NCBI GenBank assembly: GCA_965208025.1
Contig: OZ242302.1
Span: forward strand, 3,280,727 to 3,344,726
From: Rhodothermales bacterium
GTDB taxonomy: Bacteria > Bacteroidota > Rhodothermia > Rhodothermales > Bin80
Reading direction: 5' to 3'
Length of the DNA stretch: 64,000 bases
The notes under the pieces were generated by a model, which saw only the letters and a program-made list of their open reading frames with translations, was not told the origin of the DNA and did no database searches. Of this stretch, positions 3,812-55,702 are shown piece after piece; position 1 is the first letter of the stretch, and each line of letters starts with the position of its first letter. A program made the translations under genes and the position numbers.

Positions 3812-3819
3812 CACAGAAT

Positions 3820-6207
3820 ATGTCAGGGATCGTAGGACACATACTGATTTTGACAGCTTTTGTCAGTAGCATTATATCTATCTTCGCATTTTATCAGTCC
3901 GCGCAAGAGGATCAACCCGACCGAGGCTATTTTCGTCTTGGGAATGCGCTTTGGTGGGTCATGACAATTTGTCTTGTGAGTGCATGGCTACTTCTGATCG
4001 TTCTGATCGCTACCCATCAGTTCCAATATAATTATGTCTGGGCCCATTCGTCGCGGGATTTGCCATTCCATTTTTTGTTTTCCGCCAGTTGGGAAGGACA
4101 GGAAGGCTCTTTTCTTCTGTGGATCATCATGAACTGTCTGATGGGGCTCGCCCTCATCCGCTGGGCCGCTCCCTCTTACAAAGCGGCGGTCATGACCGTG
4201 GTGGCCTTATGCCAAGCCTTCTTATTGACCATGATTGTAGGCATCCAGTTGGGGCCAATTGAAATTGGTGCTGCCCCCTTTGCGACATTGGCTGAAGCAA
4301 ATCCTGACGCCCCAATCTTTCAGTCCAATCCAGACTTTGTCCCTGCTGATGGAACGGGGTTGAATGATCTGCTTCAAAACTACTGGATGGTGATTCATCC
4401 ACCTATGCTATTTGTAGGGTTCACCACCATGATTGCACCATTTGCATTTGCGGTGGTCGCTCTTTGGAAGAAGCGATATACTCAATGGGTGCGGCCCGCA
4501 CTTCCCTGGACGCTGATTAGCGTCATGTGCCTGGGGGTCGGGATTGCCATGGGGGGCTACTGGGCTTATGAGACATTGAACTTTGGTGGATACTGGGCAT
4601 GGGATCCTGTCGAAAATTCTTCACTTGTACCTTGGCTCGTCGGTGTTGCGGCGGTTCACCTGATGCTCATCCAGCGCAAAGGAGGCATCGGGCATAAGGC
4701 GGCCTTGTTCCTGTCTGTTCTCGCCTATATTTTAGTCGTCTATTCTACCTTCCTAACACGTAGTGGCATCTTGGGAGATGCCTCTGTGCATGCCTTTGTA
4801 GATCTTGGGCTCTATAATCAGTTATTAATTTGGATTGTCGCAATGGGAATGTTGGGCTTTGGACTTTTTGTCTGGCGTTACCGCGAACTTCCGAGCGCCC
4901 AACAGGAAGCCTATTATCTATCCCGCGAGTTTCTCGTCTTCTCGGGCTCTGTTCTCCTGACCGTTGTGGCAACTGTGGTGATTCTTGGGACTAGCGCTCC
5001 CATCTTTGGAAAGCTGTTCAACAATAATCCTGCAACCGTCCCAATTGACTTCTACAATGACTGGACGCTTCCTATCTCGGTAGGAATATTATTTCTGGCC
5101 GGGCTAGGACAACTATTCTGGTGGACCAAAATGAGTGTCCAGAAAGTGAACCGTGTAGTGGCCTGGCCTATTTTACTTGCAAGTTTAAGTACAATCCTTG
5201 TATTGATTCTGACTCCATTCGCATCTGAAACCGTTGCCGAAGGGGAGAACTTCTGGCAACGCTATGGCTATGGACTTCAATTGATTCTGCTTCTTTTTGT
5301 AGCATTTTTCGCACTCTTTGGGAATGCCTCGGTCCTTTGGAAAGTTGGACGGGGGAACCTGAAACTTGCCGGTGGTGCACTTGCACATGTAGGATTGGGA
5401 ATTATGGTGATCGGTATCATCGCGTCCTCCGGGTTTAGTCGCCCGATCTCTGATGCCCCCCGGGGGAGTGAGAGGAATAACTTCGTGGTCGAGCAGGGAC
5501 AACCCGTTCGCGTTGCAGGCTATCAGGTGAATTATGTTGGAACAGAACCTGGAGCGCGCGGACATACTCGTTTTGTGCTGGATTTCACAGACCCTGAAGG
5601 ACAATCCTTCCGCCTTAAACCGGTTGCCTACGAATCCAATACAGGTCAATGGATCCAGCATCCTGACCTGAAGCCCTACTTTGAAAAAGATATCTTCGTC
5701 GCCGTTACACCTCGGGAAATGCTTGATGGAGATACCGTCAATAACGAAATTGATCTACGGAAAGGACAGAGTACGATCATCGGGGATGGAACCTACCGCG
5801 TCACGTTCACGGGCTTTGAGATCGGAGTGGATTTGCCCTCCCTATTGAGCGAAGAAGAGGTAGAACGTACCGAAATCGCCGTAGGTGCGGTGCTGCAGGT
5901 CATGAACTTGAGCACCAATCTGATTGAAGAGATCATGCCTGTATACACCATTCAAACCGACCGTAGTTTGAATCCAATTGGTGCCGCATCTGGTGGGATT
6001 CAATTCTATTTTACAAGTATGAATGTGGACACTGGCGAAATTACACTCCTCCTTGATGGAGCGACCACGGCAGACTATGTTGTTGTCCAAGCACAAGTGA
6101 AACCGGCCATCAGTTTGGTGTGGATCGGAATTATTCTGCTGAGTGGGGGCTTTTTCTTGTCTGCCTCTCGGAGAATGATAGATCTGCGGCGGAGCCTTTC
6201 CCTGTAG
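3820..6207 (+). CDS. ccmF: Cytochrome c biogenesis heme lyase, CcmF/NrfE family (long form)
   Basis: Polytopic membrane protein with the W-rich heme-handling motif 'GGYWAWDPVENSSLVPWL' and 'WEGQEGSFLLW'. C-terminal soluble extension plus a final TM helix. Confidence 0.8.
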   Translation: MSGIVGHILILTAFVSSIISIFAFYQSAQEDQPDRGYFRLGNALWWVMTICLVSAWLLLIVLIATHQFQYNYVWAHSSRDLPFHFLFSASWEGQEGSFLLWIIMNCLMGLALIRWAAPSYKAAVMTVVALCQAFLLTMIVGIQLGPIEIGAAPFATLAEANPDAPIFQSNPDFVPADGTGLNDLLQNYWMVIHPPMLFVGFTTMIAPFAFAVVALWKKRYTQWVRPALPWTLISVMCLGVGIAMGGYWAYETLNFGGYWAWDPVENSSLVPWLVGVAAVHLMLIQRKGGIGHKAALFLSVLAYILVVYSTFLTRSGILGDASVHAFVDLGLYNQLLIWIVAMGMLGFGLFVWRYRELPSAQQEAYYLSREFLVFSGSVLLTVVATVVILGTSAPIFGKLFNNNPATVPIDFYNDWTLPISVGILFLAGLGQLFWWTKMSVQKVNRVVAWPILLASLSTILVLILTPFASETVAEGENFWQRYGYGLQLILLLFVAFFALFGNASVLWKVGRGNLKLAGGALAHVGLGIMVIGIIASSGFSRPISDAPRGSERNNFVVEQGQPVRVAGYQVNYVGTEPGARGHTRFVLDFTDPEGQSFRLKPVAYESNTGQWIQHPDLKPYFEKDIFVAVTPREMLDGDTVNNEIDLRKGQSTIIGDGTYRVTFTGFEIGVDLPSLLSEEEVERTEIAVGAVLQVMNLSTNLIEEIMPVYTIQTDRSLNPIGAASGGIQFYFTSMNVDTGEITLLLDGATTADYVVVQAQVKPAISLVWIGIILLSGGFFLSASRRMIDLRRSLSL

Positions 6208-6218
6208 TCCGCGATATT

Positions 6219-7331
6219 TTAGTCTTCAACTATTGCCTCCTGAGCGAATTCTCTGCCGGTTTTTGTCAACTCCAGATACTCTCCGACGGCTTGGAGCAAA
6301 TTCTTTGAAGCGGCTCGAGAAACCACTTCTTTGGCAAAGTCGGTGTCCCAAGCCAAGTGATCCTGTAAATGATCCATCCGACATTCTCTTTCCGCCTCCG
6401 GGGTTTTTTCGTGTTGCAAAAGATGGATCAGTAACATCTTCATGGCAAATTGCCATTTCTGACGCCTTTTTCGCTCCCAGACGGCGAGTAACCCTTGTTT
6501 GGGAGTAACACAGAGCAAGATCGCAAACTGAATCCCGACCATGGTTGCCATACATCCTGCAATTGAGGCATCCAGGAGGTATGCAGCCCAGTAACCAGTC
6601 ACGGCCGAAGTCATCCCAAAAAGAACACTCAGGATGAGCATCCTTCCAAGCCGATTGGTCATCAGGTACGCGCTGGCGGGCGGTCCGACCATAAAGGCAA
6701 TGACCAGAATGGAACCAACGGCATCAAACGCAGCGACTGCCGTCATCGATACCAGTCCCATGAGCGCATAATGAAGCGTGACGGGTAAAAATCCCAGGGT
6801 TGCACAAAGTGCGCTATCAAATGTAGCAAGCTTCAACTCTTTATAAAACAATAGAATAAATCCTGCACAGAGGAGTCCTACGATTCCAGTTGCATACAAG
6901 GCCTTAGGGCCAAGATCATACCCATTCAATTGGACACGATCAAATGGCACAAATGCCAATTCTCCAAGCAGTACGGCATCAGTATCCAGGTGTACATCAC
7001 CTGCAAAACGTGCAATCAAGATGACCCCGATCGCAAACAGAGTGGAAAACACCAACCCCATCGCAGCATCCTCACGAATGAGGTTCGTCCGTTGTAACCG
7101 CTCCACCAGATACACGGTTAGAAGTCCAGCGACTGCTCCACCAAGAATCAGAAACGGTGAGGATAAGCTACCTGTCAGGAAAAATCCAACCACGATTCCA
7201 GGCAGAATTGCGTGGCTGATTGCATCACTCATCATCGCCATTCTGCGCAGAACCAGAAATGAACCAGGCAACGCGCAGGCAGCAGAAACCACAATGGCGA
7301 CCAACTGGATTTCGAATTGGAACGTGCTCAT
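6219..7331 (-). CDS. Metal (Mn/Zn/Fe-type, ABC-3 family) ABC transporter permease with a ~80-aa C-terminal soluble extension
   Basis: ABC-3 permease pattern 'MMSDAISHAILPGIVVGF'. Hydrophobic core of ~280 aa, then a charged tail 'WERKRRQKWQFAMKMLLIHLLQHE...'. 4-nt overlap with the upstream permease gene. Confidence 0.85.
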   Translation of the reverse strand: MSTFQFEIQLVAIVVSAACALPGSFLVLRRMAMMSDAISHAILPGIVVGFFLTGSLSSPFLILGGAVAGLLTVYLVERLQRTNLIREDAAMGLVFSTLFAIGVILIARFAGDVHLDTDAVLLGELAFVPFDRVQLNGYDLGPKALYATGIVGLLCAGFILLFYKELKLATFDSALCATLGFLPVTLHYALMGLVSMTAVAAFDAVGSILVIAFMVGPPASAYLMTNRLGRMLILSVLFGMTSAVTGYWAAYLLDASIAGCMATMVGIQFAILLCVTPKQGLLAVWERKRRQKWQFAMKMLLIHLLQHEKTPEAERECRMDHLQDHLAWDTDFAKEVVSRAASKNLLQAVGEYLELTKTGREFAQEAIVED

Positions 7332-8440
7332 TGGTTACGTTCGCGCAGGAGTTCATTACATTCTTGAACTCCATCCGGGGTCAAGGCCCACATGCCATTG
7401 GAATGCATCCGGACTAATCCTTTCCCTTCCAATGTCCGTAAATGTCTGCGGGGAGAACCGGAATAAGGTCGGATCACCTGAAGAGCAGTTTCCTTGTGAG
7501 GATATTCATAGGAATCATGCGATTTAGCCAACTCAAATAGGTCAAGCAACAGGGCCTCACTTTTGAGCTTCTGATTCTGTATTCCTTGGCGAACACGCTG
7601 CCAGATGATCCCTCGCTTGGGTGCAAAAAGCATGGAAACCACAACAAGACTGGCAGCACACACTACAATTGTTGGACCCGTAGGTAAGTTGGAGGTGGAT
7701 ACGCTCAGCAGTGACCCAGCTATGCCGGAAAGTGAACCCAGCATCATTGCAATCAACATCATTACCCCAAAATGATTGGTCCACTGACGGGCGGCAGCGG
7801 CTGGAGCAATAATCATTGCACTCATCAGAACGACACCAACGGTTTGCAGTCCGATCACGATCGCTACAACAAGGAGCGTAGTTAAGCCCAAGTCCAATCT
7901 CCGAACGGGTAGCTCGAGGCTATGGGCAAACTCTGAATCAAATGCGAGTAGCTTGAATTCTTTCCAGAACAGTATTAGAATCACGAATGCCAGCCCTCCC
8001 AAAACTGCCATCGTGATCACATCCTGAGCGATCAGTGACGCAGCTTGACCGAATAGAAACGAATCCAGTCCGGCCTGATTGGCATTCGGAAATTTCTGAA
8101 TGAACGTCAGCAGTACTAAGCCTGCACCAAAAAATACAGATAGGACAAGCCCTAATGCACTATCATACTTGACTCGTGTGCTCGCAACCACAAACAAGAC
8201 TACGGCGGTTGCCAACCATCCTGTAAGCCCTGCCCCAACCATCAAGATCAGAGATGCTTTACTGCCAGTGAGTAGAAAAGCAAGTCCGATCCCTGGCAGT
8301 GCAGCATGAGATACCGCATCACCCAATAAACTTTGCTGTCGGAGGACGGCAAATGTGCCCAGTGCACCACTCACTGCCCCCAAGATTGCAGTACCAAGAG
8401 TGACCATTCGTAGGGTGTAGTCATCAAAAAACTGCTCCAT
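7328..8440 (-). CDS. Metal ABC transporter permease (ABC-3 family) with a C-terminal winged-helix-like extension
   Basis: 'LLGDAVSHAALPGIGLAFL' ABC-3 motif. C-terminal 'RRHLRTLEGKGLVRMHSNGMWALTPDGVQ' resembles a DtxR/MarR-type wHTH. Confidence 0.85.
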   Translation of the reverse strand: MEQFFDDYTLRMVTLGTAILGAVSGALGTFAVLRQQSLLGDAVSHAALPGIGLAFLLTGSKASLILMVGAGLTGWLATAVVLFVVASTRVKYDSALGLVLSVFFGAGLVLLTFIQKFPNANQAGLDSFLFGQAASLIAQDVITMAVLGGLAFVILILFWKEFKLLAFDSEFAHSLELPVRRLDLGLTTLLVVAIVIGLQTVGVVLMSAMIIAPAAAARQWTNHFGVMMLIAMMLGSLSGIAGSLLSVSTSNLPTGPTIVVCAASLVVVSMLFAPKRGIIWQRVRQGIQNQKLKSEALLLDLFELAKSHDSYEYPHKETALQVIRPYSGSPRRHLRTLEGKGLVRMHSNGMWALTPDGVQECNELLRERNQ

Positions 8441-8442
8441 GA

Positions 8443-9204
8443 CTATACCTGATCTTTGATGATTGCTATTCGTCCTCCGTAGGTAAGTCCAAGGTTGGTA
8501 TCGGTGAACACCTCTGTAACCGGTCCACTGGCAATTCGACGAATATTCAGAAGTAAGACTTCATCAAAGTAGGAAGTTACCGTCTGCAGATCATGGTGTA
8601 CGGTAAGTACCGTTTTCCCAGATGTGCGGAGGGTTTGAAGAAGGTCAATGATGGCGTGCTCAGTGATCGCATCTACACCTTGAAGAGGTTCATCCATGAG
8701 ATAAATTTGAGCATCCTGAACCAGAGCTCTCGCCAGAAATACACGCTGCTGTTGGCCTCCTGAGAGTTGGCTGATCTGCCGGTGAGCCAACTCATGCATA
8801 TCAACTTGTTCAAGAGCAGACATAGCCACAGAGCGCTCATGTCTCCCAGGTCTACGAATCCAACCCAGTTGGCCATACAAGCCCATTAAGACAACATCCA
8901 GTACGCTAGTGGGAAAATCCCAATCTACGGTACCTCGCTGAGGAACATATCCAACATTAGAAGCGACAGATTGATACGGCTGACCGAGGATCCGAATCTG
9001 TCCAGCTGCAGGATTGATCAGCCCCAGAATCGCCTTGATCAGTGTTGTCTTTCCAGCCCCATTGGGGCCAACGACAGCCATTAATACTCCGGAGGCCACA
9101 TCTAAATCTATGTCCCAAAGGACAGGCTTTTCCTGATAGGCAACGGTCAGATCTCGTACTTCAACTGCGTTGACCATTGAAGAGCGCATTGACGATTGTA
9201 TCAA
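8443..9204 (-). CDS. Metal ABC transporter ATP-binding protein
   Basis: Walker A 'GPNGAGKTT', signature 'LSGGQQQRV', Walker B 'IYLMDEP'. The start is uncertain: several in-frame Met codons, and the ORF overlaps the end of the binding-protein gene. Confidence 0.9.
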   Translation of the reverse strand: MIQSSMRSSMVNAVEVRDLTVAYQEKPVLWDIDLDVASGVLMAVVGPNGAGKTTLIKAILGLINPAAGQIRILGQPYQSVASNVGYVPQRGTVDWDFPTSVLDVVLMGLYGQLGWIRRPGRHERSVAMSALEQVDMHELAHRQISQLSGGQQQRVFLARALVQDAQIYLMDEPLQGVDAITEHAIIDLLQTLRTSGKTVLTVHHDLQTVTSYFDEVLLLNIRRIASGPVTEVFTDTNLGLTYGGRIAIIKDQV

Positions 9205-10105
9205 TATTGTATTGGACCATCTTTAAGTATGTGTCCGCTTCGGAGCCTGGTCCACCCAATGCATCTCCATACAATGTACCCCCAACACGCACTTCAAAGC
9301 CTTTTGCCTTGACAGCTTCCTGCACCGCTTCAATCCCTCTCGGAGATATGGACGACTCTACAAATATTGCTGGAATTTCTCGTTCAACTACAAGCGCTGC
9401 CAAGCCCTGAACATCTCCAGCACCCGATTCCAAAGCTGTTGAAATACCTTGCAGCCCCTCTACCTCAAAACCATATGCTTTCCCAAAGTATCCAAATGCA
9501 TCATGGGATGTGATGAGCACTCGTTTCGCTTCGGGGACTTCGCTTGCTTTCTGAGCCACATAGGCATCTAACTCCATGAGTTTCTCTTCGTACGTGGCAG
9601 CACCGGAGGTAAAGATTGTTTGTCTATTGGGATCAAGCGTACCAAGTGCAGTTGCGATAGCATACCCCGCCTTTGCCCATAACAAGGGATCAAACCAGAT
9701 ATGGGGATCATGATTGCCCTGAAATAATTCTGATGAAATTAATAAGCTGTCCAAGATACTCACCTCGGCAACCGCAATGATGGAGATCTCATCCTCTTGC
9801 ATGCCCTCAAAAACATCTCCCATTTTGCCCTCCAAATGGAGGCCATTGTAGACAATCAGATCAGCTTCTTTCATCTTTGACACATCCCGAGCACTTGCCT
9901 TGTAGAGATGAGGATCTACCCCCGGCCCCATGAGCGATTCAACCACAACCTCCGTACCACCCACCGCATGAACCAGATCTGCAACAATACTTGTCGTGGC
10001 AGTCACCCGAATTGGACGTTCCGTGATTGGGAGATCAACTTGATCTGTGGATGTACAAGAAGCAAGTATAGAAAGCCCGATAAGAAATACTATGAATCCA
10101 CGCAT
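9161..10105 (-). CDS. Metal ABC transporter substrate-binding lipoprotein (TroA/PsaA/ZnuA cluster-9 type)
   Basis: Lipoprotein signal 'MRGFIVFLIGLSILASC'. Metal-ligand contexts 'GVDPHLY', 'DPHIWFDP', 'ITSHDAFGYF'. The start is placed at the ATG at 10105 rather than the TTG at 10114 in the ORF track. Confidence 0.85.
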   Translation of the reverse strand: MRGFIVFLIGLSILASCTSTDQVDLPITERPIRVTATTSIVADLVHAVGGTEVVVESLMGPGVDPHLYKASARDVSKMKEADLIVYNGLHLEGKMGDVFEGMQEDEISIIAVAEVSILDSLLISSELFQGNHDPHIWFDPLLWAKAGYAIATALGTLDPNRQTIFTSGAATYEEKLMELDAYVAQKASEVPEAKRVLITSHDAFGYFGKAYGFEVEGLQGISTALESGAGDVQGLAALVVEREIPAIFVESSISPRGIEAVQEAVKAKGFEVRVGGTLYGDALGGPGSEADTYLKMVQYNIDTIVNALFNGQRS

Positions 10106-10116
10106 CCTATGCAAAA

Positions 10117-10132
10117 TTTAGTCTTGCCTAAA
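10117..10132. promoter_or_regulatory. Candidate metalloregulator (DtxR/MntR-type) operator just upstream of the metal importer operon
   Basis: Inverted repeat TTTAG-N6-CTAAA ('tttagtcttgcctaaa') lies 12-27 nt upstream of the binding-protein ATG. Its half-sites resemble the TTAG/CTAA half-sites of DtxR-family boxes. The arms are short, so support is weak. Confidence 0.2.
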
Positions 10133-10463
10133 ACTGCATAACCGCTGATCTGTTGCGTTTCAATCCCCCATTCATGAATCACTGATTGGATATCCTACTC
10201 CAATTAATACTCAACTCCCAATTTGGGCATTCTAACCACAGGAACAATTATTTTCAGCCACGCAGAACCTTGGAGTACGACGACCATCAGGACAACTTCG
10301 AATGGTCACATGTTGAACAAGGAGTGATTTCTGGATCAATTGATTGCCAGAGACCATACGTCATGTGGTTGGAGGTCTCCGAAGAGTTTGGCAGAAGAAT
10401 GGGTATGCAGGGATCCCCTACTCCATGGCAACGGGAATCATTTGAAAAGTACTTGCTAATGAA

Positions 10464-11558
10464 CTATGTGATTGCTCCGCCGCAGCTACTCCCTGCCCCG
10501 GCGGTACATCCGTAACAATGTCGTGCTGTCCGAATAGCATGATCCTGCCAGATGGCAAGATCAAAGTCTTGAACATGGGGGCTCGGAATCTCCATGTGCA
10601 GATCAAGCTGCTGGTTAAAATCACAATCATATAAATACCCATCCCATCCAATCGAAAGCGTATTCCTGCACATGAGCCCTGCAATGGTGGATGGATTGAA
10701 TGCCTGTAACAGCCTGTTCAGGTAAAGCTCCACTTGACCAGTTTCCATGAGCCACTCCAGGTATCGTGAGATTGGTAGATTGTTCAAGGTCAGTAGTTGA
10801 TCAAAATGGACGTCATGGTTTCGCATCAATGCTGCCTTCCACTCACTTTCAAGCGATTCTTGATTTCCCGAAAGGAATGCGCCAACGGGGTTTGTAACAA
10901 TGACCAGTCTGCGGTCAGGATCTCCTTGTCCATATCCGACTTGATTCAGGCGCTGTAATGCCTCAATAGATTTTCGATAGGTCCCCTGTCCACGCTGGGC
11001 ATCGGTACTCATTTTTCTGTAATGAGGTAACGAACAGACAACTTCCACTCCCCGCTCAGCAAACCATTCTGGGAGGTACTGGTACCTGCGCGTTAGCAGG
11101 ATCGTAAGGTTGCAACGATCCATCACTCGGAGCCCTCTCTGAATACATTGATCTACAAGATATTCAAAGTTCGGATTGAGTTCAGGCGCTCCACCTGTGA
11201 GATCAACCACTCGGACTCCTGTTTCCTCAATGACGCGCAGACAGGCATCCACAGTTTCTCGATCCATATTTTCATGGATTCGATCGGGACCAGCATCCAC
11301 ATGACAATGTCGGCAAGTCATATTGCATAGCTTGCCAAGATTGATCTGTACAATCTCTAAATTGGACGGTTTGATTCGTGGCCATCCACTGGAGGCTAAA
11401 TCAAGTTCAAACTGGCCGCTATTCGTAGGCCCACCCGAGATATGAGCCGAACCCAGAACTTTGAGTTGTTCGATCGGGTGCGCCAACGGGACAACCCGAG
11501 AAGAGAGGGAGGTCGTAGCTCTGGGACTCAGAGGAAGCGTCTCAAGCATGATTCTCAA
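10464..11558 (-). CDS. arsS: Radical SAM / Cys-rich C-terminal domain protein, arsenosugar biosynthesis ArsS-like
   Basis: CxxxCxxC 'CNMTCRHCH'. Characteristic Cys-rich tail 'RHCYGCTAGAGSSCGGAI'. Sits in a cluster with ArsM-like and AhpD-like genes. Confidence 0.8.
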   Translation of the reverse strand: MRIMLETLPLSPRATTSLSSRVVPLAHPIEQLKVLGSAHISGGPTNSGQFELDLASSGWPRIKPSNLEIVQINLGKLCNMTCRHCHVDAGPDRIHENMDRETVDACLRVIEETGVRVVDLTGGAPELNPNFEYLVDQCIQRGLRVMDRCNLTILLTRRYQYLPEWFAERGVEVVCSLPHYRKMSTDAQRGQGTYRKSIEALQRLNQVGYGQGDPDRRLVIVTNPVGAFLSGNQESLESEWKAALMRNHDVHFDQLLTLNNLPISRYLEWLMETGQVELYLNRLLQAFNPSTIAGLMCRNTLSIGWDGYLYDCDFNQQLDLHMEIPSPHVQDFDLAIWQDHAIRTARHCYGCTAGAGSSCGGAIT

Positions 11559-43506: not shown

Positions 43507-44214
43507 ATGACGGTATTTGTTAATGGAGTGAGTTATCCCATTGATCCAGGCTTAATCAGTGGAGCCGTGCTGCATGAACTTGCTGGCCCGAATCTTCTGT
43601 ATAGTGTTGATGGTACAGTCATTCCTGTATTTTCAGAAGATTATCTACTTGTCCGTGGAGGGGAGAGGTTTATCCTTGAGAAAGGTAAAATCAAAGACAG
43701 TCCCTCTCTTCAGGATCCACTGAAGCCGAGTTTCAACGACGCCCAAGATGTTGCCCTGATCACCCCCAAAATAATTGCAAAAGATCTGAAGGCTTATGAT
43801 CCTGAATTTCCAGACGGTCGTTTATTTGCGGAAATATCCAAGGACCTAGATGTAGAAATCGGTGACGATCTACGACTCATTGTTCAGGCTAGTGATTCTT
43901 ATTTCGTCATTCCTCCAGGAGATTTTGGGGGAGTCATTGACATTGAAAAATGCGGAAGTCATGGTCGCAAAGTTCCCAAAGGTGGAATTTATCTGTATCG
44001 GCTTGACCATGGCTACCATAGATCAGAAGATCAGAAGATTAGAGGCACAGACATCTTGGCTCAGGCAGGCAAAAAAATTGAGGAGTGGTCTCTAAATCTG
44101 AAACTTAGCGGTGGCACGCGGATCAAGATTGATGAAGATTGGATTGATCTCACAAAATTAGGAAGTGAGCGGTTTGAATCCGTTCGTCGTCATGCGCAGC
44201 AGGGGGGTGAATGA
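43507..44214 (+). CDS. Poly-beta-grasp ubiquitin-like protein (Multiubiquitin-type), three tandem Ubl units, C-terminus ...QQGG-E
   Basis: Three internally similar ~60-80-aa units with anchors 'LISGAVLHELAG', 'ITPKIIAKDLKA' and 'IRGTDILAQAG'. Each is followed by an acidic 'D..(I/L/V)..' strand. Unit 2 ends 'GDFGG' and the protein ends 'HAQQGGE*'. Confidence 0.6.
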   Translation: MTVFVNGVSYPIDPGLISGAVLHELAGPNLLYSVDGTVIPVFSEDYLLVRGGERFILEKGKIKDSPSLQDPLKPSFNDAQDVALITPKIIAKDLKAYDPEFPDGRLFAEISKDLDVEIGDDLRLIVQASDSYFVIPPGDFGGVIDIEKCGSHGRKVPKGGIYLYRLDHGYHRSEDQKIRGTDILAQAGKKIEEWSLNLKLSGGTRIKIDEDWIDLTKLGSERFESVRRHAQQGGE

Positions 44215-44593
44215 TTTGATTGAACTCCCACCTGAAGATTCAGAGTACTTAGACGGTAACTATGAAAACCAATGGCGGATTATTTCTGACGGGGGTGCGA
44301 AGAGTGCATTATTAATAGAGAGTTTCCCCATTCCAAGTGGTTATGATCTTAGGACAACAACCCTCATGATTTTGATTCCAAGCGGTTACCCCGGGACATC
44401 TCTTGATATGTTCTATTTCAATCCTCCCTTAGTGAGGTCAGATGGTGCAGAGATTCCCTCCCTTACCAAAGAGTCACATTTTGATATAACGTGGCAACGT
44501 TGGTCACGCCACTATACATGGGAACCTAGTCGGGACTCTCTCACAGGGCATGTTGAGTTTGTAAAACGAAAACTCCACGATGAACTCCGATGA
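44192..44593 (+). CDS. Prokaryotic E2/UBC-like protein (Prok-E2_E-like), cysteine-free
   Basis: 'LPPEDSEYL ... IPSGYPGTSLDMFYFNPPL.RSDG..IP ... WQRWSRHY.W' matches my recollection of the bacterial E2 family E pattern. Start is uncertain (ATG 44192 or GTG 44207), and either one overlaps the Ubl gene end. The whole ORF contains no Cys. Confidence 0.55.
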   Translation: MRSRGVNDLIELPPEDSEYLDGNYENQWRIISDGGAKSALLIESFPIPSGYDLRTTTLMILIPSGYPGTSLDMFYFNPPLVRSDGAEIPSLTKESHFDITWQRWSRHYTWEPSRDSLTGHVEFVKRKLHDELR

Positions 44594-45987
44594 CCTTGAC
44601 CACGAGGAAGCTAACTCTGACGGCATCTTCCCACCTCTCTCTTGTGGATTATCTGTTTCCTGGAGATGGGTTAGAGGCAGTTGCAATTCTTATCTGTAAC
44701 TTGGGGAAAGGCCGGCTTGGAGAGCATCTGATTGTCAAGGATATAGTTTTTCCACCCTATGAGAGGTGTGAACGGTATCCAGATAAAGTAATTTGGCCGT
44801 TTGCCGAAATCGTACCCCCTAGCCTAATCAGTACAATTGACCGCGAGGGACAGTCACTGATCACAATTCATTCACATCCTTCGGGTGATGCATTTTTTTC
44901 GGCAATAGACGATGAGAATGATTACCAATTAATCACGTCTATTGCGGGTTGGTTTGATGATGCAAGGCCACATGGGACAGCAGTGATGCGATCAGATGGA
45001 ATGATGATCGCACGTGTACTGGATGAATCAGGAGAATTTAGAAATATTGAAGTCGTGGGTGTCGTGGGCGAAGAAATACAATTCTGGAAACGATTCGTTG
45101 AATCTCCCGAAAGAACATCCGAACTTAGGATTAAGCAGACATTTGGACAGGGAACGCTTGAGATGCTGAAGGGGATGCTGGTTGGAGTCGTGGGTTGTTC
45201 TGGCACTGGAAGCATAATGATTGAACTATTAGTTCGCAACGCGATCGGAGCGTTGGTCATCGTTGATGATGACTCCTTAGATGAATTAAATCTAAATCGG
45301 ATAATCAACGGTACATCTGAGGATGCACGATTGGGACGACCAAAGGTGCGAGCATTAGAAGAGGCAATTGAGCGGATTGGACTCGGAACGAATGTCTGTG
45401 CCTTTGAGGGACGCACGGATTCTGCTTCTGTTGTCAGGGCTTTGATTGATTGTGATGTGATCTTTGGGTGTATGGACACTGCCTTTGGACGTTATCACTT
45501 GGATTGCATTGCAAGTGCGTACTTAATCCCCTACTTTGATTTGGGGGTAGATTTGGTCGCGGATGGAGAGGGAGGAATCCAATCAGCTGATGCTGTATCT
45601 CATTATGTCCATCCAGATGGGACTAGTTTACTTTCTCGTATGGCCTATACCATGGATCAAGTGACATCGGAGATGTGGCACAGGGATGATGTGGAGCATC
45701 ACGAACGCCAGTGGCGTGCGGGGTATCTTGCGGCAGTTGATGAAAATCATCCTGCCGTCATATCAGTGAACATGCAGGCAGCTTGTCTGGCATTCAATGA
45801 TTTTTTGGCTCGGATCTCAAATTTCCGGCTTGATTCGAATGGTGAATTCACGACTCAACGGTTTAGACTGGTTCATGGCTCATTTGAGAATGATACCGCA
45901 AAAGGGGAACCACATGATTTATTAAAACCATACGTAGCTTCTGGAGACAAAAGCCTACTCGTCAGAAACAATACTTCTTATGCATAG
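44590..45987 (+). CDS. JAB/JAMM deubiquitinase-like metalloprotease fused to a ThiF/E1-like adenylating enzyme
   Basis: JAMM motif 'HSHPSGDAFFSAID' (HxHx7Sx2D) with an upstream Glu ('GLEAVAIL'). E1 Rossmann 'VGVVGCSGTGSIMIELL...LVIVDDDSLDELNLNRI' and 'VIFGCMDTAFGRYHLD'. ATGA overlap with the E2-like gene. Confidence 0.8.
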   Translation: MTLTTRKLTLTASSHLSLVDYLFPGDGLEAVAILICNLGKGRLGEHLIVKDIVFPPYERCERYPDKVIWPFAEIVPPSLISTIDREGQSLITIHSHPSGDAFFSAIDDENDYQLITSIAGWFDDARPHGTAVMRSDGMMIARVLDESGEFRNIEVVGVVGEEIQFWKRFVESPERTSELRIKQTFGQGTLEMLKGMLVGVVGCSGTGSIMIELLVRNAIGALVIVDDDSLDELNLNRIINGTSEDARLGRPKVRALEEAIERIGLGTNVCAFEGRTDSASVVRALIDCDVIFGCMDTAFGRYHLDCIASAYLIPYFDLGVDLVADGEGGIQSADAVSHYVHPDGTSLLSRMAYTMDQVTSEMWHRDDVEHHERQWRAGYLAAVDENHPAVISVNMQAACLAFNDFLARISNFRLDSNGEFTTQRFRLVHGSFENDTAKGEPHDLLKPYVASGDKSLLVRNNTSYA

Positions 45988-46341
45988 GTTGCCAGATTCT
46001 TTTTGGGTATCCTGTCTCAATTGCATCCTTACCAGACCGAGTACATTCAAGATTTACATCTATATGTTAAACTCAATACGATCTGTATCATCGGAGAACA
46101 TGCCCTCCTCATTGTATTCAGCAATTGTCTGTCCGATGTATCGAAGTAAGAAAGTTGTCCATTTAGATTTATCTGTTGTAAGTACCACTGGAAGATCACA
46201 GAGATTCCAATGGCCGTGTATCACTTCTGCCATCAGTGCGTGGATCCGAATTGAAATGCAATTACCAGTATAGATTCCGATGTGGATATTGTATTGTCTG
46301 TATCAAACCGCCCATGTTTTAAGTTTCCAAGGTGAACCGAT

Positions 46342-47949
46342 ATGATTGAGCGAATAGAAATACGCAATGTCATGCGTTTCCGTGAGTTGAACTGCGAACT
46401 GGAGAAGCATCTTCTAATTGTTGGACCAAATAATTGTGGCAAGACGACGCTTCTCCAAGTGATCGCACTATGGTCAGAAATTGCAGCATACTGGTCGAGA
46501 AACAATCCCGATTTAGCTAGAGACAGCAATGGTGATTATTCGAGCACTGCATTGAATTTATTGAGAACATCCTCAATTCTTTTATCTGACTGGAATCATT
46601 TATGGTATGATAAAAATGTTACATCTCCAGCCTCAATCCGACTACAAATTGCAGGTAGACGACTTGGTTTTGAGTTGATCTATAAGGGGCGGGAAATTGT
46701 AGATGTTCGACCAACTTCGGATGTATTGGAGTCCGTTCTGGAATGGTATCTTGACAATCCTATCATCCCAGTTTACATTCCATCAATGTCAGGAGTGGAT
46801 AGGGAAGAACCTAACTATGATCCTGGGGTCATTCCAGCAAGACTCTCAAGAGGACAGGCTGGGACGGTGCTCCGAAATATTCTTTTGGATGTCAGCACCG
46901 ACTCCGATAGATGGCAACAGCTAAGCAATGTTGTATCCGATCTTTTCGGGAGCGAGTTGATGATGCCAAGTGGAGGCGCCGAGATATTTGCAGAGTATCG
47001 GGAGAGTCCTTCAAAATTAGGCTTAGACTATTGCAGTGGTGGTTCCGGGTTTCTTCAGATCGTAATGATATATGCGACCATTTTCTGGAGAACACAATCT
47101 GTGATTCTAATTGATGAGCCAGACGCTCATCTACACTTGTTCTTACAAGACAGACTCTATGGTGATCTCAAGCGACGCGCCAAACACCATGGATGGCAGT
47201 TGATCATTGCAACTCATTCGCAGCAACTCATTAATCAGGCTACTACCAGTGATATAAGGATATTATCAAATGATCTGAACAGGATATCAGATCGCAGAGT
47301 CGTTGCAGAGTCATTGCGATTGGACAATATAGATTTACTGCTCGCTCAGAAATCAAAATGTGTTTTATATCTGGAGGGATGGACAGATAAGGAAATATTA
47401 TGGAAGTGGGCACAGATTCTGGGCCACCCAATCTTGCAACATTTGGATAAACTTCTCTATAAATTCACTGCAGAGGAAAGCCGCCGTTCTACGCGACATT
47501 TTGGGGCAGTACAAGCTCATGTTCCTGCATTGAAAGGGGTTGAGTTATTGGATAGGAACAATAAAGGCACCAGTGCGGATTCTAAATCGTATCCTGAGGG
47601 CATGAAGCTTTTAGTTTGGAGTCGGTATGAGATAGAAAATTATCTAATCCATCCTGCTGCAATACTTCGGTGGCTCACCTCAAGAGGTGGGAAGGATGCA
47701 GCTGACAGGGCCAATCATTACATGAAAAACTATTTTCCACCGGCTCTACATTTGAATCCATTGGAGATGGATTTTCATGAGGGTGTCAAGGGGAAGCAGG
47801 TAATTGACAGAATTGTTGATGCTGCACAAATTCAAATTGATAGGTCAGAGTACGCTGAGATTGCAGGCGGGATGCTGAAAGAAGAGATTCATTCAGAAGT
47901 GATTGAGAAGCTAGACCTGATATTCGATCATTTGAATCTTGTAAACTAG
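46342..47949 (+). CDS. ABC-type (AAA_15/21-like) ATPase fused to a DUF4435/Toprim-like domain. PARIS-like (fused AriA-AriB) or OLD-family defence nuclease candidate
   Basis: Walker A 'GPNNCGKTT', signature-like 'CSGGSGFLQI', Walker B 'VILIDEPDAHLH', H-loop 'IIATHS'. C-terminal 'CVLYLEGWTDKEIL' and 'SRYEIENYLIHP' resemble DUF4435/Toprim motifs. Confidence 0.65.
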   Translation: MIERIEIRNVMRFRELNCELEKHLLIVGPNNCGKTTLLQVIALWSEIAAYWSRNNPDLARDSNGDYSSTALNLLRTSSILLSDWNHLWYDKNVTSPASIRLQIAGRRLGFELIYKGREIVDVRPTSDVLESVLEWYLDNPIIPVYIPSMSGVDREEPNYDPGVIPARLSRGQAGTVLRNILLDVSTDSDRWQQLSNVVSDLFGSELMMPSGGAEIFAEYRESPSKLGLDYCSGGSGFLQIVMIYATIFWRTQSVILIDEPDAHLHLFLQDRLYGDLKRRAKHHGWQLIIATHSQQLINQATTSDIRILSNDLNRISDRRVVAESLRLDNIDLLLAQKSKCVLYLEGWTDKEILWKWAQILGHPILQHLDKLLYKFTAEESRRSTRHFGAVQAHVPALKGVELLDRNNKGTSADSKSYPEGMKLLVWSRYEIENYLIHPAAILRWLTSRGGKDAADRANHYMKNYFPPALHLNPLEMDFHEGVKGKQVIDRIVDAAQIQIDRSEYAEIAGGMLKEEIHSEVIEKLDLIFDHLNLVN

Positions 47950-51129: not shown

Positions 51130-52968
51130 ATGATGGGATCGTACGATGAAAATCAAACAGAATCCGTTAATGGTGGATCTATCACGATCACCGAGAACAA
51201 ACTACTGGATATTCTTAAGAAGAATGCTCCAGAGGCATTCACCGAGGATAAGATTGATTGGGAAAAATTTCGAGCTACCTTAGGTGGTAACGTTGAATTC
51301 AGTGAGGAACGCTACCATCTAAATTGGGCTGGCAAAGCCAATGTATTTCGTATGCTTCAAAGGCCTACCAATGCTACTCTTAGACCATGTCGAGAAGAAT
51401 CAATCAAATTTGACACTAGTAGCAATTTATTTATTGAGGGCGAGAATTTGGAAGTGCTTAAAATTCTCCAGAAGCCATATTTCGGTAAAGTCAAGATGAT
51501 CTATATTGATCCGCCCTATAACACTGGGAACGACCAATTTATTTATCCAGACAGCTTTGCTGAGAATAAAAATGCTTATCTAAAACACATCGGTAAAAAG
51601 GATGAACAAGGACATAGTATCCGAGAGGGGATATTCCAAAAAAACAATCGGGAGAATGGCCATTTTCACTCCAATTGGCTCAGCATGATATACCCACGAC
51701 TTTACATGGCCAGAAATCTCCTGCGAGATGATGGAGTGATTTTTGTCTCCATTGACGACAATGAAGTTCATAATTTGCGTCTTGTGATGAATGAAATTTT
51801 TGGGGAGGATAATTTTATCGCATGCTTCGCTTGGAGGAGAACAGACAATCAGTCAAATATTGGAAATGTAGCCAGAATCAAGGAATATATTTTGTGCTAT
51901 GCCAAAGTTGGTTCTTCTCTTCGTTTGAACAAAATGAAATTATCTGAGAGAGCACGGAAAGAGTATAGATATTCTGATGATAAAGGCAAATATAGAAGAT
52001 CAATTCTCCATCATAAAACAAGAGGTCGGTTCCACTATCAAGTCGTTGCCCCAAATGGAAATACAGTAAATGGTCCATGGATGGTTGACGAATCCGAATT
52101 CAAAAAACTCTTAAATAATGATGGGATCCATTGGGCAGGGAAAGGACATCAACACCCTTATGGGAAAATCTATCTTAAAGAGTCTAAGGGTCAAATTACG
52201 AGCGACTTTTTAGGCCTTGAGTTTGGATCTAATCAGCAAGGAAGTATTGAATTGGAGAGGTTATTTGGTGCAAGATATTTCGATTTTCCAAAACCGGTAA
52301 GTTTGGTCAAACATTTTATAACTATTGGAACGAATGACGATGATATAGTGATGGATTTCTTTGCTGGGTCATGCACCACTGCCCATGCAGTCCTTCAACT
52401 CAACTCTGAGGAAAAGGCTAATCGTAGATTTATTTGTATCCAAATGCCAGAATTATGTGACGGTGGATCCAGAGCTGGAAAAGAAGCCCTGAAAGCATGC
52501 TTCAATACTATTGCTGATATAGGGAAAGAACGTATTCGTAAGGTTCTAATTAATTCTGATCTTCGAGACGGGTTCAAAGTTTTCACACTTCAAAAATCCA
52601 ACTTCAAAACATGGCGAGGTGAGGATATACGCACGCAACAAGATCTTGAAAAACAACTTGAAATCCATATCACGCCACTTATTGAAAATGCGGATACTGA
52701 GCATGTCCTCTATGAGTTATTACTCAAATCGGGCTTGCCTTTGACTTCCAAAATTGAAGACAGGGGCAAGTGGTTTAAGGCCGAGTATCTTAACACTCTC
52801 ATTGCTTTTGCTTTGAACGACATTGATGAGGTTATAGTTAATGAGGTCGTTGCAGAAAGCCCACAAAAATTTATTGCTCTGGATCATTTATTCCAGAATA
52901 ATGATCAACTCAAAACCAATACTTCCTTGCGGATGGAAGATTCTGGAATAGAGTTTGAGACAGTTTGA
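51130..52968 (+). CDS. mod: Type III restriction-modification methyltransferase (Mod, beta-class N6A/N4C MTase)
   Basis: Motif IV 'IYIDPPYNTGND' precedes motif I 'DFFAGSCTTAHA'. The N-terminal 'YHLNWAGK' and 'LFIEGENLEVLK' are typical of Mod. It lies directly upstream of res. Confidence 0.9.
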   Translation: MMGSYDENQTESVNGGSITITENKLLDILKKNAPEAFTEDKIDWEKFRATLGGNVEFSEERYHLNWAGKANVFRMLQRPTNATLRPCREESIKFDTSSNLFIEGENLEVLKILQKPYFGKVKMIYIDPPYNTGNDQFIYPDSFAENKNAYLKHIGKKDEQGHSIREGIFQKNNRENGHFHSNWLSMIYPRLYMARNLLRDDGVIFVSIDDNEVHNLRLVMNEIFGEDNFIACFAWRRTDNQSNIGNVARIKEYILCYAKVGSSLRLNKMKLSERARKEYRYSDDKGKYRRSILHHKTRGRFHYQVVAPNGNTVNGPWMVDESEFKKLLNNDGIHWAGKGHQHPYGKIYLKESKGQITSDFLGLEFGSNQQGSIELERLFGARYFDFPKPVSLVKHFITIGTNDDDIVMDFFAGSCTTAHAVLQLNSEEKANRRFICIQMPELCDGGSRAGKEALKACFNTIADIGKERIRKVLINSDLRDGFKVFTLQKSNFKTWRGEDIRTQQDLEKQLEIHITPLIENADTEHVLYELLLKSGLPLTSKIEDRGKWFKAEYLNTLIAFALNDIDEVIVNEVVAESPQKFIALDHLFQNNDQLKTNTSLRMEDSGIEFETV

Positions 52969-53021
52969 TCAGATCAATGACGCTCTTTATGAGCTCTTGT
53001 TTTCCTTGAACCAGACGACTA

Positions 53022-55702
53022 ATGGTATGTCTTCATTTTGATTCAAACCAACAATACCAACTGGATGCAATCCATGCGGTCTTGCGTATTTTTAAGGGGC
53101 AGCCTGTGAAGAGCAGCAATACATTTTCTTCACACAATGCTGGGGAGTTAATAGCTGAAACAGGCTTTGCCAATCGTTTGTATATCAATGAAAAACAAAT
53201 CCTTCGGAATGTTCAGGACATTCAAAAAGAAGCACACGAAAACAAGAGACAGGTCAGAAGAAAATATGAAAAATGGGCAGTTTCCGAGTATCTTGACGGA
53301 ATGCACTTCTCTGTGGAGATGGAAACTGGCACAGGAAAAACGTATGTTTATTTACGCACGATCTATGAATTGAACTTCAATTATGGCTTCCGAAAGTTTG
53401 TCATTGTCGTTCCTTCAATCGCAATTCGGGAGGGGGTTCTGAAAAATCTGACAATTACCAGTTCTCACTTGCAAAACTTGTATAACCGTCCGCCGACCCA
53501 TTATCAAGTCTACGATTCCAGTAGGGTTGCTAACCTGAGGTCATTTGCTCTAAGCGATGCAATTGAAATTCTAGTCATCAACATAGATTCGTTTGCGAAA
53601 GACAAAAACATAATCAACCGCCCCAATGATAAATTAATGGGGAATAAGCCCATTGATTTTATCAAACGTGCAAACCCAATAGTTATTCTGGACGAGCCGC
53701 AGAATATGGAAACAGATATTCGCAGAAATGCCATCCAGAATTTGAACTATCTCTGTACTTTGCGCTACTCGGCTACTCATACCAAGAGATATAATTTGAT
53801 TTATAGCCTTGATCCCGTTCAGGCTTATGATCTGAACTTAGTAAAACAAATCGAAGTCAGTTCCGTTGTCTCTAAGAATGATTTTAACGCTGGGTATGTG
53901 CGATTGAAGAAAATCAACACTGCACGTTCCTTATCGGCCTCTATTGAAATAGATTGTAACACGCGGAACGGTGTGAAAAGGCAATCAATTACTGTACGTG
54001 TTGGGGATGACTTATTCGCTGCTTCAGGGAAAAGAGAGGTATACAGAAACAACTATATTGTGAATGAAATTAATGCGGAAAAAGGTAGTATCGTATTGTC
54101 TGGGGGCAGGCAATTATCAGTTGGTGAAAGGATTGGCGGACTGAATGACGATATAATGCGAGCTCAGATCTATGAGACTGTTTCCGAGCATTTTAGCAAG
54201 GAGAAGCGGTTAAACGGGATAAAAGTAATTTCCCTATTTTTTATCGACCGAGTGGCAAATTATCGTACCTACGATGTGGAGGGTAATCCTGTCAAGGGAA
54301 AATTTGTAGAGTATTTTGAGGAAGCATTCAACCATTATTCAAATATGGAGGAATATAGGGGAGTGATTCCGTTTGAGGTGGAAGAAGTCCACGACGGATA
54401 TTTTTCTCAAGACAGAAACAGGTGGAAAGATACCAGAGGCAACACCCGTGCAGACAATAAGACATATGAGTTGATCATGCGAGAAAAGGAGCGCTTACTG
54501 GACACGCACGAACCTTTACGCTTCATTTTCAGTCACTCTACGCTTCGAGAGGGTTGGGACAATCCGAATGTATTTCAAATATGTACACTGAATGAAACAC
54601 ACTCTGAGTTAAAGAAACGCCAAGAGATAGGTAGAGGGATGCGATTGGCAGTGGGCAGTGACGGCAAGCGTATATGGGATAGAAATGTGAACCTGTTAAC
54701 AGTAATTGCAAATGAGAGCTACGAAGATTTTGCTCGCCAGTTGCAGAATGAAATTGAGGATGAATGTGGGGTCATGTTTGAAAACCGGACAAAAAATAAA
54801 CGAGAAAGAGTGAGCATACGATACCGTAAGGGATTTCAGTTGGATGAAAATTTCAAGGCGTTATGGGACAGGATTAAATTTAAAACTGTCTATCGCGTTG
54901 AGTACGATACGGATGAATTAATTAGCCGTGCGATAGAGTCGGTGAAAAATATGGATGTTGTAACAAAGCCAATGCTCCAGATTGAGAAAGGGGCATTGGA
55001 TTTGACAGATGAAGGGGTCAAACATCAGGTGAAAAAAACTTATAAATCCCCCAGAGAGAGAGATGATTTTTTTATTCCAGATATTCTATCCTACATTCAG
55101 GATCATTCTCATACCAGACTCACACGTTCTACGATTTATCAAATACTGTCGGGTTCTGGGAGAATAGGCGAAATTCTGATTAATCCTCAATTATTTGGAG
55201 ATATGGTTGTTGACGCAATCCGTAATGCACTGACAGACCTGATGGTTAGAGGAATCAAATATGAAAAAATCTTGAAGAAGAATTTGAACTGAAATTATTT
55301 AAAGAGTATGAGTTTCACAGCAACGAACATACCTTTAGGATTAACAACCCGGACAAAACTATTAATTCCAGTCTGATTCCACTTGATTCTGGCGTAGAGA
55401 GCCAGTTCGCTCGGGACTGCGAAAGTAGGGAAGATATTGAATTCTATATCAAGCTTCCCCACTGGTTCAAAATTAAGACACCCATCGGTAACTATAATCC
55501 AGATTGGGCTCTCATTAAAAAGGAGGAGAAGGTTGTATATTTCATTGCCGAGACCAAGTCACAGGGACAAGAATTAAAGGTGAGCGAAAGATTCAAGATA
55601 GCATGTGGAGAAGCAAATTGTAATGCACTGGAGAATGTTGATTTTCGGCATGTCTCATCTGTTAGTGATTTAGATGAGTCAGGTAGCTTTCGCCACAAAT
55701 AG
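53022..55702 (+). pseudogene. res: Type III restriction enzyme Res subunit (SF2 helicase + C-terminal PD-(D/E)xK nuclease), interrupted by a -1 frameshift in an A6 tract
   Basis: Helicase motifs 'METGTGKTYVY' and 'VILDEPQNM'. The frame-0 ORF stops at 55292. The nuclease-domain sequence 'PLDSGVESQFARDCE...NYNPDWALI...VYFIAETK' continues in another frame from 55265 to 55702. One extra A in the A6 run at 55264-55269 would give a single ~893-aa ORF. Confidence 0.85.

Follow-up and report, generated by a model that had tools for sequence, protein, structure and literature searches.

An OLD-like ATPase-Toprim protein as the probable terminal component of Type I Bub-like operons

The window analysed here is a stretch of 64,000 nt from a Rhodothermales bacterium (assembly GCA_965208025.1, contig OZ242302.1, positions 3,280,727 to 3,344,726 of the forward strand). 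It carries a Bub operon, which encodes a ubiquitin-like protein (Ubl) and the E2-like and JAB-E1 proteins that go with it, and behind this operon, on the same strand, a gene for a single polypeptide joining an OLD-type ABC ATPase to a Toprim-like domain, referred to below as the OLD-like gene (Table 1). We propose, with a probability of roughly 0.7, that in its clade this gene, which encodes an enzyme of the OLD family, is the last gene, coupled in translation, of a Type I Bub-like operon, which would form a defence module. A preliminary description of this DNA had reported the open reading frame (ORF), six motifs within it and its spacing to the Ubl operon. Translation bears out the ORF and all six motifs (GPNNCGKTT at residues 28-36, SGGSG at 232-236, ILIDEPDAHLH at 255-265, ATHS at 290-293, YLEGWTDKEIL at 343-353 and YEIENYLIHP at 429-438), and the end of the JAB-E1 gene at 45987 gives a spacing of 354 nt. 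A Shine-Dalgarno-like AAGGTGA site lies 5' of the ATG. In 64 full-length homologues (40-57% identity), G28, N30, G33, K34, T35, D258, E259, H263, H265, T291, E345, D349 and E432 are invariant and H292, D404 and E430 are conserved in at least 90%, so the motifs are not chance occurrences. An alignment of 87 family sequences shows no exception to K34, D258, E259, H292, E430 or E432 in either of the family's two clades, described below, nor to E345, D349 or D404 in the Bub-linked clade. Compared with its counterpart in the near-identical genome G010, the gene has 10 synonymous and 7 non-synonymous codon differences; these are small numbers, and together with the intact ORF they make the gene look maintained.

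The 354-nt spacer had been taken for a plain gap of 355 nt. The distance stands, but the sequence is a pseudogenised bubE, a fourth gene of the operon, rather than intergenic DNA. A tblastn search with the intact BubE of the related locus L021 as query recovers remnant pieces in three frames, at 45994-46095 (amino acids 3-36), 46070-46174 (amino acids 30-62) and 46206-46346 (amino acids 75-120). In these pieces SVRG replaces the SVHV of relatives, LKCNYQ replaces CRCHYW, and the context of the catalytic His is lost. The G010 genome has the same remnant (98% identity, one 5-nt indel), bubE is not detectable at three other Bub-linked copies in the genus, and no intact DUF6527 gene was found elsewhere in the genome from which the window comes. 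Two other candidates in this spacer were discarded: a 97-amino-acid ORF at 45980-46273, considered as a small gene, is one frame of the bubE remnant, and a conserved RNA or promoter was dropped, the spacer not being conserved among the genus copies. Promoter and terminator scans of the spacer gave results at chance level.

In relatives the gene order is bubA, bubB, bubCD, bubE and the OLD-like gene. An intact bubE (~120 amino acids) is found in 17 related loci from many phyla, and in these it overlaps both the stop of the JAB-E1 gene and the start of the ATPase gene. In L021, the ORFs for a fused BubAB (394 amino acids, 6078-7262), BubCD (7259-8653), BubE (8646-9011) and the OLD-like protein (9001-10608) overlap successively by 4, 8 and 11 nt, and BubE matches PF20137 (DUF6527) at 8.8e-14. 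The bubA and bubB genes of the window (43507-44593) are separate, overlapping ORFs in different frames, and they are also called separately in L117 and L118. The window operon is of the published Type I Bub type (10.1101/2024.11.21.623953) with a fifth gene. That type, formerly 6E.1/DUF6527 and represented by BubAB-BubCD-BubE of Citrobacter sp. RHBSTW-00271, has the same Multi_ubiq Ubl, Prok-E2_E, JAB-ThiF and DUF6527 components, and the fusion of Ubl and E2 in L021 is as published. It differs from the loci described here in that a fifth gene is fixed behind bubE in the relatives and bubE is decayed in the window. The published description contains no ATPase or nuclease gene in its main text and none of the words 'ATPase', 'Toprim', 'DUF4435' or 'nuclease' in its supplementary files (10.1101/2024.11.21.623953). 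Two Bub preprints are the only items in the searched literature that contain 'DUF6527', neither main text has an ATPase, and no paper on the pairing of Bub with an OLD-like gene was found in that literature, subscription journals lying outside it.

Genomic context was assessed in 80 loci from contigs representing one genome per species, the phylum sample being too sparse for co-occurrence. Nearly all of the closest relatives among them have homologues of the Ubl, E2 and JAB-E1 genes directly upstream, and about 355 nt separate the end of E1 from the start of the ATPase gene in every one of those loci. The bubCD gene lies directly 5' of the OLD-like gene in 21 of 21 Bub-linked rows of the tree (the window and 20 loci), the same order recurs in the frameshifted locus L077 and in L117-L119, and the Bub-linked rows together with L077 span at least 10 phyla with one gene order. 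A maximum-likelihood tree of 88 members resolves two clades with a Shimodaira-Hasegawa-like approximate likelihood-ratio test (SH-aLRT) value of 100. One has 32 members, made up of every one of the 21 Bub-linked rows plus 11 solo copies, and the other, of 56, has no Bub-linked member. Pairwise identities across 20 loci, ranging from 31 to 79% for the ATPase and from 54 to 92% for E1, are correlated (Mantel r = 0.81, 0 of 2,000 permutations as high), which shows co-inheritance rather than co-adaptation, the loci being related. Searched from the E1 side, all three E1 homologues (~57% identity) have BubE and the ATPase gene downstream. The preliminary description had left open whether the gene acts with the Ubl operon or only shares a defence islet with it. 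Because the order is fixed, bubE overlaps its neighbours in 17 loci, the Bub-linked copies form part of one clade and the ATPase diverges with E1, the OLD-like gene belongs with the Ubl operon and is not a chance neighbour; we regard its conserved operon membership as very probable.

Two loci show variations on this arrangement. In L077 (8980-10721, Latescibacterota) an intact Bub operon is followed by an OLD-like gene that is divided into two ORFs of 238 and 333 amino acids, apparently by a frameshift. In L035 (8911-15068) two diverged OLD-like copies flank one bubA-bubB-bubCD set, the second copy starting 38 nt past E1, with no bubE at all.

The gene could instead be a stand-alone, class 1-like OLD defence gene that shares an islet with the Bub operon and is not coupled to it. 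Consistent with this, solo copies make up 11 of the 32 clade members, the window copy stands 354 nt from the operon and lacks an intact coupling gene, E1 evolves more slowly than the ATPase (see the identity ranges above) and the sister clade has another context, that of Type III restriction-modification (R-M) genes. Such a gene would nevertheless have to be squared with a fixed order and overlaps through bubE in many phyla, with the confinement of every Bub-linked copy to one clade and with the Mantel correlation of ATPase and E1. Two of the solo copies also retain Bub remnants upstream, namely the last 15 BubE residues in L027 and E2 and BubE fragments in L037, so solo copies arise at least partly by loss of Bub genes, and not by independent assortment. 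On this evidence a stand-alone gene is unlikely.

Outside the operon, the OLD-like gene is followed on the opposite strand by a pair of DUF192 genes and one for a HemN-like radical-SAM protein. Locus L011 (G023:C1:1265000-1283000, 8604-10710), from a different species of the window's genus, has a solo OLD-like gene (50% identity) at the same site, between an IscA-like gene 164 nt away and the DUF192 pair, without Bub genes. A Type III mod gene (612 amino acids) and a res gene (756 amino acids, ResIII plus DEAD) lie in the window at 51130-55292, 3.2 kb downstream of the OLD-like gene and split from it by the conserved opposite-strand DUF192 and HemN-like genes; their nearness probably reflects a shared defence neighbourhood only.

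Table 1. Coordinates of the OLD-like gene, its predicted domains and motifs, and the Bub operon in the window
Feature	Position (nt)	Strand	Details or basis
OLD-like ATPase-Toprim gene (P0001)	46342..47949	+	535 aa, ATG start, single ORF
ABC (OLD-ABC, AAA_15/AAA_21) ATPase domain, residues 1-~313	46342..47280	+	Pfam
Walker A	46423-46446	+	
Signature SGGSG	47035-47049	+	
Walker B	47101-47118	+	
H-loop H292	47215-47217	+	
Toprim plus C-terminal helical domain, residues 318-535	47293..47949	+	AF2 model, Foldseek
Putative metal ligand E345	47374-47376	+	
Putative metal ligand D349	47386-47388	+	
Putative metal ligands D404-R-N406	47551-47559	+	
Putative metal ligands E430-I-E432	47629-47637	+	
bubA (multi-beta-grasp Ubl, 235 aa, ends ...QQGG-E)	43507..44214	+	translation; homologues PF14452 Multi_ubiq
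bubB (Prok-E2_E, E2-like)	44165..44593	+	Pfam PF14462 2.3e-29
bubCD (JAB peptidase-E1 fusion)	44590..45987	+	Prok-JAB (PF14464) 6.8e-7, ThiF (PF00899) 1.3e-19
bubE (DUF6527 serine protease) pseudogene	45994..46346	+	three-frame tblastn remnant

The N-terminal domain is an OLD-type ABC ATPase. Pfam AAA_21 (1.3e-16) and AAA_15 (9.1e-16) both match past their cut-offs and, with the invariant residues, substantiate the full ABC/AAA_15-21 motif set that had been read in this half. A search of PADLOC models ranks fused AriAB first (2.1e-22), followed by NsnB, AriA, a retron ATPase-Toprim, PtuA, Old and GajA; NCBIfam returns PtuA, the Eco8 effector and MAD3, all sub-threshold; and in a sequence search of the PDB, PtuA, a retron ATPase, Thermus scotoductus (Ts) OLD and AriA match over the Walker regions. 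Structures were predicted with AlphaFold2 (AF2) for monomers, both of the whole protein and of residues 318-535. The whole-protein model has a predicted local distance difference test score (pLDDT) of 91.3 and a predicted template modelling score (pTM) of 0.81, and the secondary structure gives an N-terminal domain of ~310 residues with no long coiled coil. Its best full-length fold match in the PDB is T. scotoductus OLD (6p74, E 2e-12), with PtuA, GajA and retron ATPases next.

The AF2 model of the C-terminal half (pLDDT 92.1) contains four strands, with E345 just past the first and D404 just past the third, and then a helical bundle, a predicted layout that is that of a Toprim domain (beta1-E and beta3-D topology). 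Its top four Foldseek matches are the C-terminal regions of class 2 OLD proteins from Xanthomonas and Burkholderia (6njv, 6njx, 6njw and 6nk8; E 3.5e-3 to 1.3e-2, probability 1.00, template modelling (TM) scores 0.43-0.56). With ~230 aligned columns, the match spans the Toprim and helical domains together. We assign the window protein to the OLD family with high confidence.

No member of the 32-member clade departs from E345, D349, D404, E430 or E432, and 31 members have K483. In Burkholderia (Bp) OLD, metal A is bound by E400, D455 and D457 and metal B by E404, T506 and E508, and the helical domain supplies a lysine to the active site (PMC7049728). From alignment and model, the acidic residues of the clade appear to share the order and the spacing of this two-metal machinery. 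Within the DxD motif, 14 of the 32 clade members and 55 of 55 members of the sister clade retain the second Asp. By context, DxN is found in five of five Bub-linked alignment rows without an intact bubE, in 8 of 11 solo copies and in 5 of 16 rows with bubE, an association that is a hint not weighable given shared ancestry. Both members of the sister pair L019 and L020 have DxN while bubE is intact, so the change to Asn came before the loss of bubE. As for a conserved, clade-specific lysine that could serve as an acceptor of BubA, none was found except K485, whose counterpart in the sister clade is Arg.

A second alternative is that the Toprim site is dead or attenuated and that the protein serves the Bub machinery as a sensor or scaffold powered by ATP, for instance one that recruits targets. 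The distribution of DxN, in the window, in 18 of the 32 clade members and in all five Bub-linked rows without intact bubE (5 of 16 with it), would suit such a role, as would the precedent of Cran1 (OLD class 5), which needs its ATPase and not its nuclease activity in vivo (PMC12796447). The invariance of the five acidic residues and the near-invariance of K483 speak against an abandoned site, however; Asn is still able to ligate metal, and DxD persists in 14 clade members and in all 55 sister-clade members. This alternative is rather improbable.

The same modules occur in PARIS, and the gene had been described as a possible fused form of that system: the window protein would then be a true AriAB, with an anti-restriction trigger such as Ocr and a Toprim tRNase cutting host tRNA-Lys. 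The PADLOC ranking and the position of PARIS AriB (8v46_D and 8ux9_A, E ~0.04, TM 0.31-0.39) as fifth and sixth among the Foldseek matches are in keeping with this, as is a PADLOC search with the C-terminus alone, which matches only AriAB (5e-4) and AriB (0.027), over the EIENY stretch. DUF4435 itself is touched weakly by 5 of 26 homologous C-termini (best E 0.0096), and a profile of the 26 sequences matched among PDB sequences only a designed myoglobin, by chance. Comparison alignments were made for DUF4435 (A3, PF14491-annotated proteins) and for OLD Toprim domains (A4, PF20469 loci). With hhalign, the domain aligns to DUF4435 over 120 columns with the EG..D, D.D and E.EN motifs in register (probability 15%, E 1.8e-3), and to OLD Toprim with only the first motif aligned (probability 21%). 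A control comparison of DUF4435 with OLD Toprim is equally weak at 21%, so the scores show distance, not exclusion, and the C-terminal domain is a third, equally distant branch of the superfamily and a member of neither Pfam family. The preliminary description was right in calling this domain Toprim-like, as fold and motif order show, and in placing the polypeptide in the OLD/PARIS/Gabija superfamily; the DUF4435 and fused-PARIS labels are not supported as they stand, there being no Pfam match to DUF4435 or OLD-like_TOPRIM. In fold the domain resembles class 2 OLD (TM 0.43-0.56) more than AriB (0.31-0.39), so 'OLD-like' fits better; the ATPase part has ~310 amino acids against 464 for AriA; the neighbouring genes are those of Bub operons or Type III R-M; and no homologue was found in the phage and plasmid collections. 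The OLD-like protein is not a strict PARIS member, and a true fused PARIS is quite improbable.

Likeness to the OLD family lies in the single polypeptide with an N-terminal OLD-type ABC ATPase followed by a Toprim and then a helical domain, in an acidic E-x3-D ... DxD/N ... ExE pattern, which would fit a two-metal site, and in the best fold matches (6p74 for the whole protein; 6njv, 6njw and 6nk8 for the C-terminal half). Differences are that no UvrD-like helicase (GajB) is adjacent to the window gene, unlike class 2 OLD/Gabija; that the protein has no PF20469 or other Toprim-type Pfam match, only the first motif aligning; and that the family lies in Bub operons or among Type III R-M genes and has DxN in about half of the clade. 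With PARIS (OLD class 4) it shares the two modules, AriAB as the top PADLOC model, AriB among the top folds and the motif order in register with DUF4435, and it differs from PARIS in lacking a DUF4435 profile match, in an ATPase far shorter than AriA and in context. Septu PtuAB, Menshen NsnB/NsnC and retrons Ec78 and Eco8 resemble the proposed system in that a nuclease, attached or bound, is under the control of an OLD-type ABC ATPase, and these pairs have a third component as sensor (PMC12065111). The proposed upstream part here, in contrast, is a ubiquitin-like conjugation cascade, which is present in none of them. In both the OLD review and the 2025 class 5 paper the scheme comprises classes 1-5 and another ten clades without names, and ubiquitin is mentioned in neither.

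More than 100 full-length homologues (~535 amino acids, 40-57% identity) are annotated merely as AAA ATPases. A profile of the C-terminal domain recovers 441 clusters (50% identity) at E <= 1e-10 among 1.84 billion representatives, and every match longer than ~530 amino acids has the domain at about 320-550, a constant position that makes the ATPase-Toprim fusion the rule. No match to the C-terminal domain was found in the phage and plasmid collections. Of 23 other genomes in the genus of the window, 6 carry the family, some of them in two or three copies, and in a 401-genome sample of the phylum it is present in two, the window genome and its near-twin. The protein tree does not follow taxonomy, and patchy spread together with such a tree is how an accessory gene that moves horizontally behaves. 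Many carriers in both clades (L019-L098) are metagenome-assembled genomes labelled as sponge-associated taxa (Poribacteria, Poriferihabitans and Porisulfidus), which suggests that the module is exchanged within sponge microbiomes. A housekeeping DNA-repair ATPase of the RecF/SbcC/RecN kind can be dismissed as very improbable, since the weak SMC_N and RecF profile matches in its favour are limited to the P-loop region and fall under curated cut-offs, the gene is as sparse and in places multi-copy as these counts show, its phylogeny departs from taxonomy and its neighbours are defence genes.

The sister clade (32-37% identity) is found at 31 loci from many phyla between a ~920-amino-acid Type III methyltransferase (PADLOC MTase_III 5e-154, Pfam N6_N4_Mtase) and a ~1040-amino-acid ResIII protein; eight further loci have one of these two R-M partners. 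The genes of this mod-X-res arrangement overlap by 4 nt in L061 (6212-13778) and L079 (6251-13823), and we found no description of the three-gene arrangement. Among 400 scored genomes of the class to which one Bub-carrying gammaproteobacterial genome belongs, 7 have DUF6527, and those seven include three related Bub operons (E1 ~50% identical) without an OLD-like gene. These operons (L121:3677-5465, L122 and L123) have, directly 5' of bubA, a gene for a 427-amino-acid AAA_15 ATPase (PADLOC NsnB 1.4e-51, PDC-M55A 2.4e-48) and an overlapping gene for a 187-amino-acid PIN-like protein, a likeness to Menshen. Bub operons of this lineage carry an ABC ATPase and a nuclease in some form. Patchy presence, multiple copies, the Type III R-M sister clade and this NsnB-like/PIN alternative in Bub operons without an OLD-like gene together indicate defence-like behaviour of the family.

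Other arrangements were observed as well. In L117, L118, L032, L036 and L037, which form a single Bub-linked sub-lineage, the block of Bub and OLD-like genes lies between an HmaB-like DUF1156 adenine methylase gene and a PLD/SNF2 helicase gene, and in L037 the Bub genes between methylase and helicase are decayed to fragments. Locus L124 (G936:C1:847000-864000, 3664-8581) encodes a 570-amino-acid relative (30% identity) 1.5 kb 5' of an E1 gene and a DUF6527 gene. The E1 is of the ThiF type (428 amino acids), and a 95-amino-acid ORF and a methylase fragment intervene. L124 may be a second, differently ordered link, with a Type II-like Bub operon.

How the OLD-like protein would work is inferred here from sequence and context. 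The N-terminal ABC ATPase would control the C-terminal part, a Toprim nuclease of the two-metal kind that carries a class 2-like helical domain, and the whole module of Bub and OLD-like proteins would be an anti-phage or stress system. The ATPase may dimerise and sense a trigger, and ATP binding or hydrolysis would then license cleavage of DNA or tRNA at the Toprim site, a step for which P2 Old, GajA and AriAB are models (PMC7049728; PMC11464382; PMC12065111). BubA would be attached to the nuclease or to its trigger by the Bub machinery, setting or resetting its activity, and the JAB domain and BubE would remove it; in the genus of the window, where BubE is lost, conjugation would be reversible through the JAB domain only. 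That the OLD-like gene is an effector or partner of one Bub-based system is, on balance, probable. More speculative, and at present doubtful, is the idea that BubA conjugation by the oxyester E1/E2 cascade directly gates the OLD-type nuclease as an abortive-infection switch that JAB and BubE reset.

Several points weigh against the proposal of a Bub-coupled OLD-family enzyme. The 11 clade members without adjacent Bub genes, including the copy at the same site in G023, indicate that the OLD-like protein can persist, and perhaps act, alone. With the C-terminal half searched on its own, Pfam gives no match up to E = 10, a genome-wide search with PF20469 (OLD-like_TOPRIM) matches two other loci and not the OLD-like gene, and the profile-profile scores are weak (15% for DUF4435 and 21% for OLD Toprim). 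The suggested equivalence of residues with OLD rests on motif order and a fold match. The window protein has Asn (N406) in place of the second Asp of DxD, as do 18 of the 32 clade members, and N406 may weaken the binding of metal A. With bubE decayed, the window operon may work differently from those of its relatives. Phage protection has also not been reported for Bub operons (10.1101/2024.11.21.623953).

Work from 2024 showed that Bub operons are real protein-conjugation pathways whose oxyester chemistry is unusual, and their biological role was left open (10.1101/2024.11.21.623953). In many phyla bubE is followed by a fixed, translationally coupled gene for a nuclease whose anti-phage type is well understood. 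This gene is a concrete candidate for the output of Bub, and the role of the pathway becomes testable by ordinary genetics. If direct gating by BubA were true, it would be the first output for the Bub pathway and a new control of ABC-ATPase nucleases, and the mod-X-res sister clade would suggest that the nuclease began as an accessory of a restriction system. The OLD field gains a clade with a class 2-like nuclease domain and no helicase partner, in Bub and Type III mod/res contexts that are absent from the class 1-5 scheme. The window copy is a natural variant without BubE, useful for asking what purpose the deconjugase serves.

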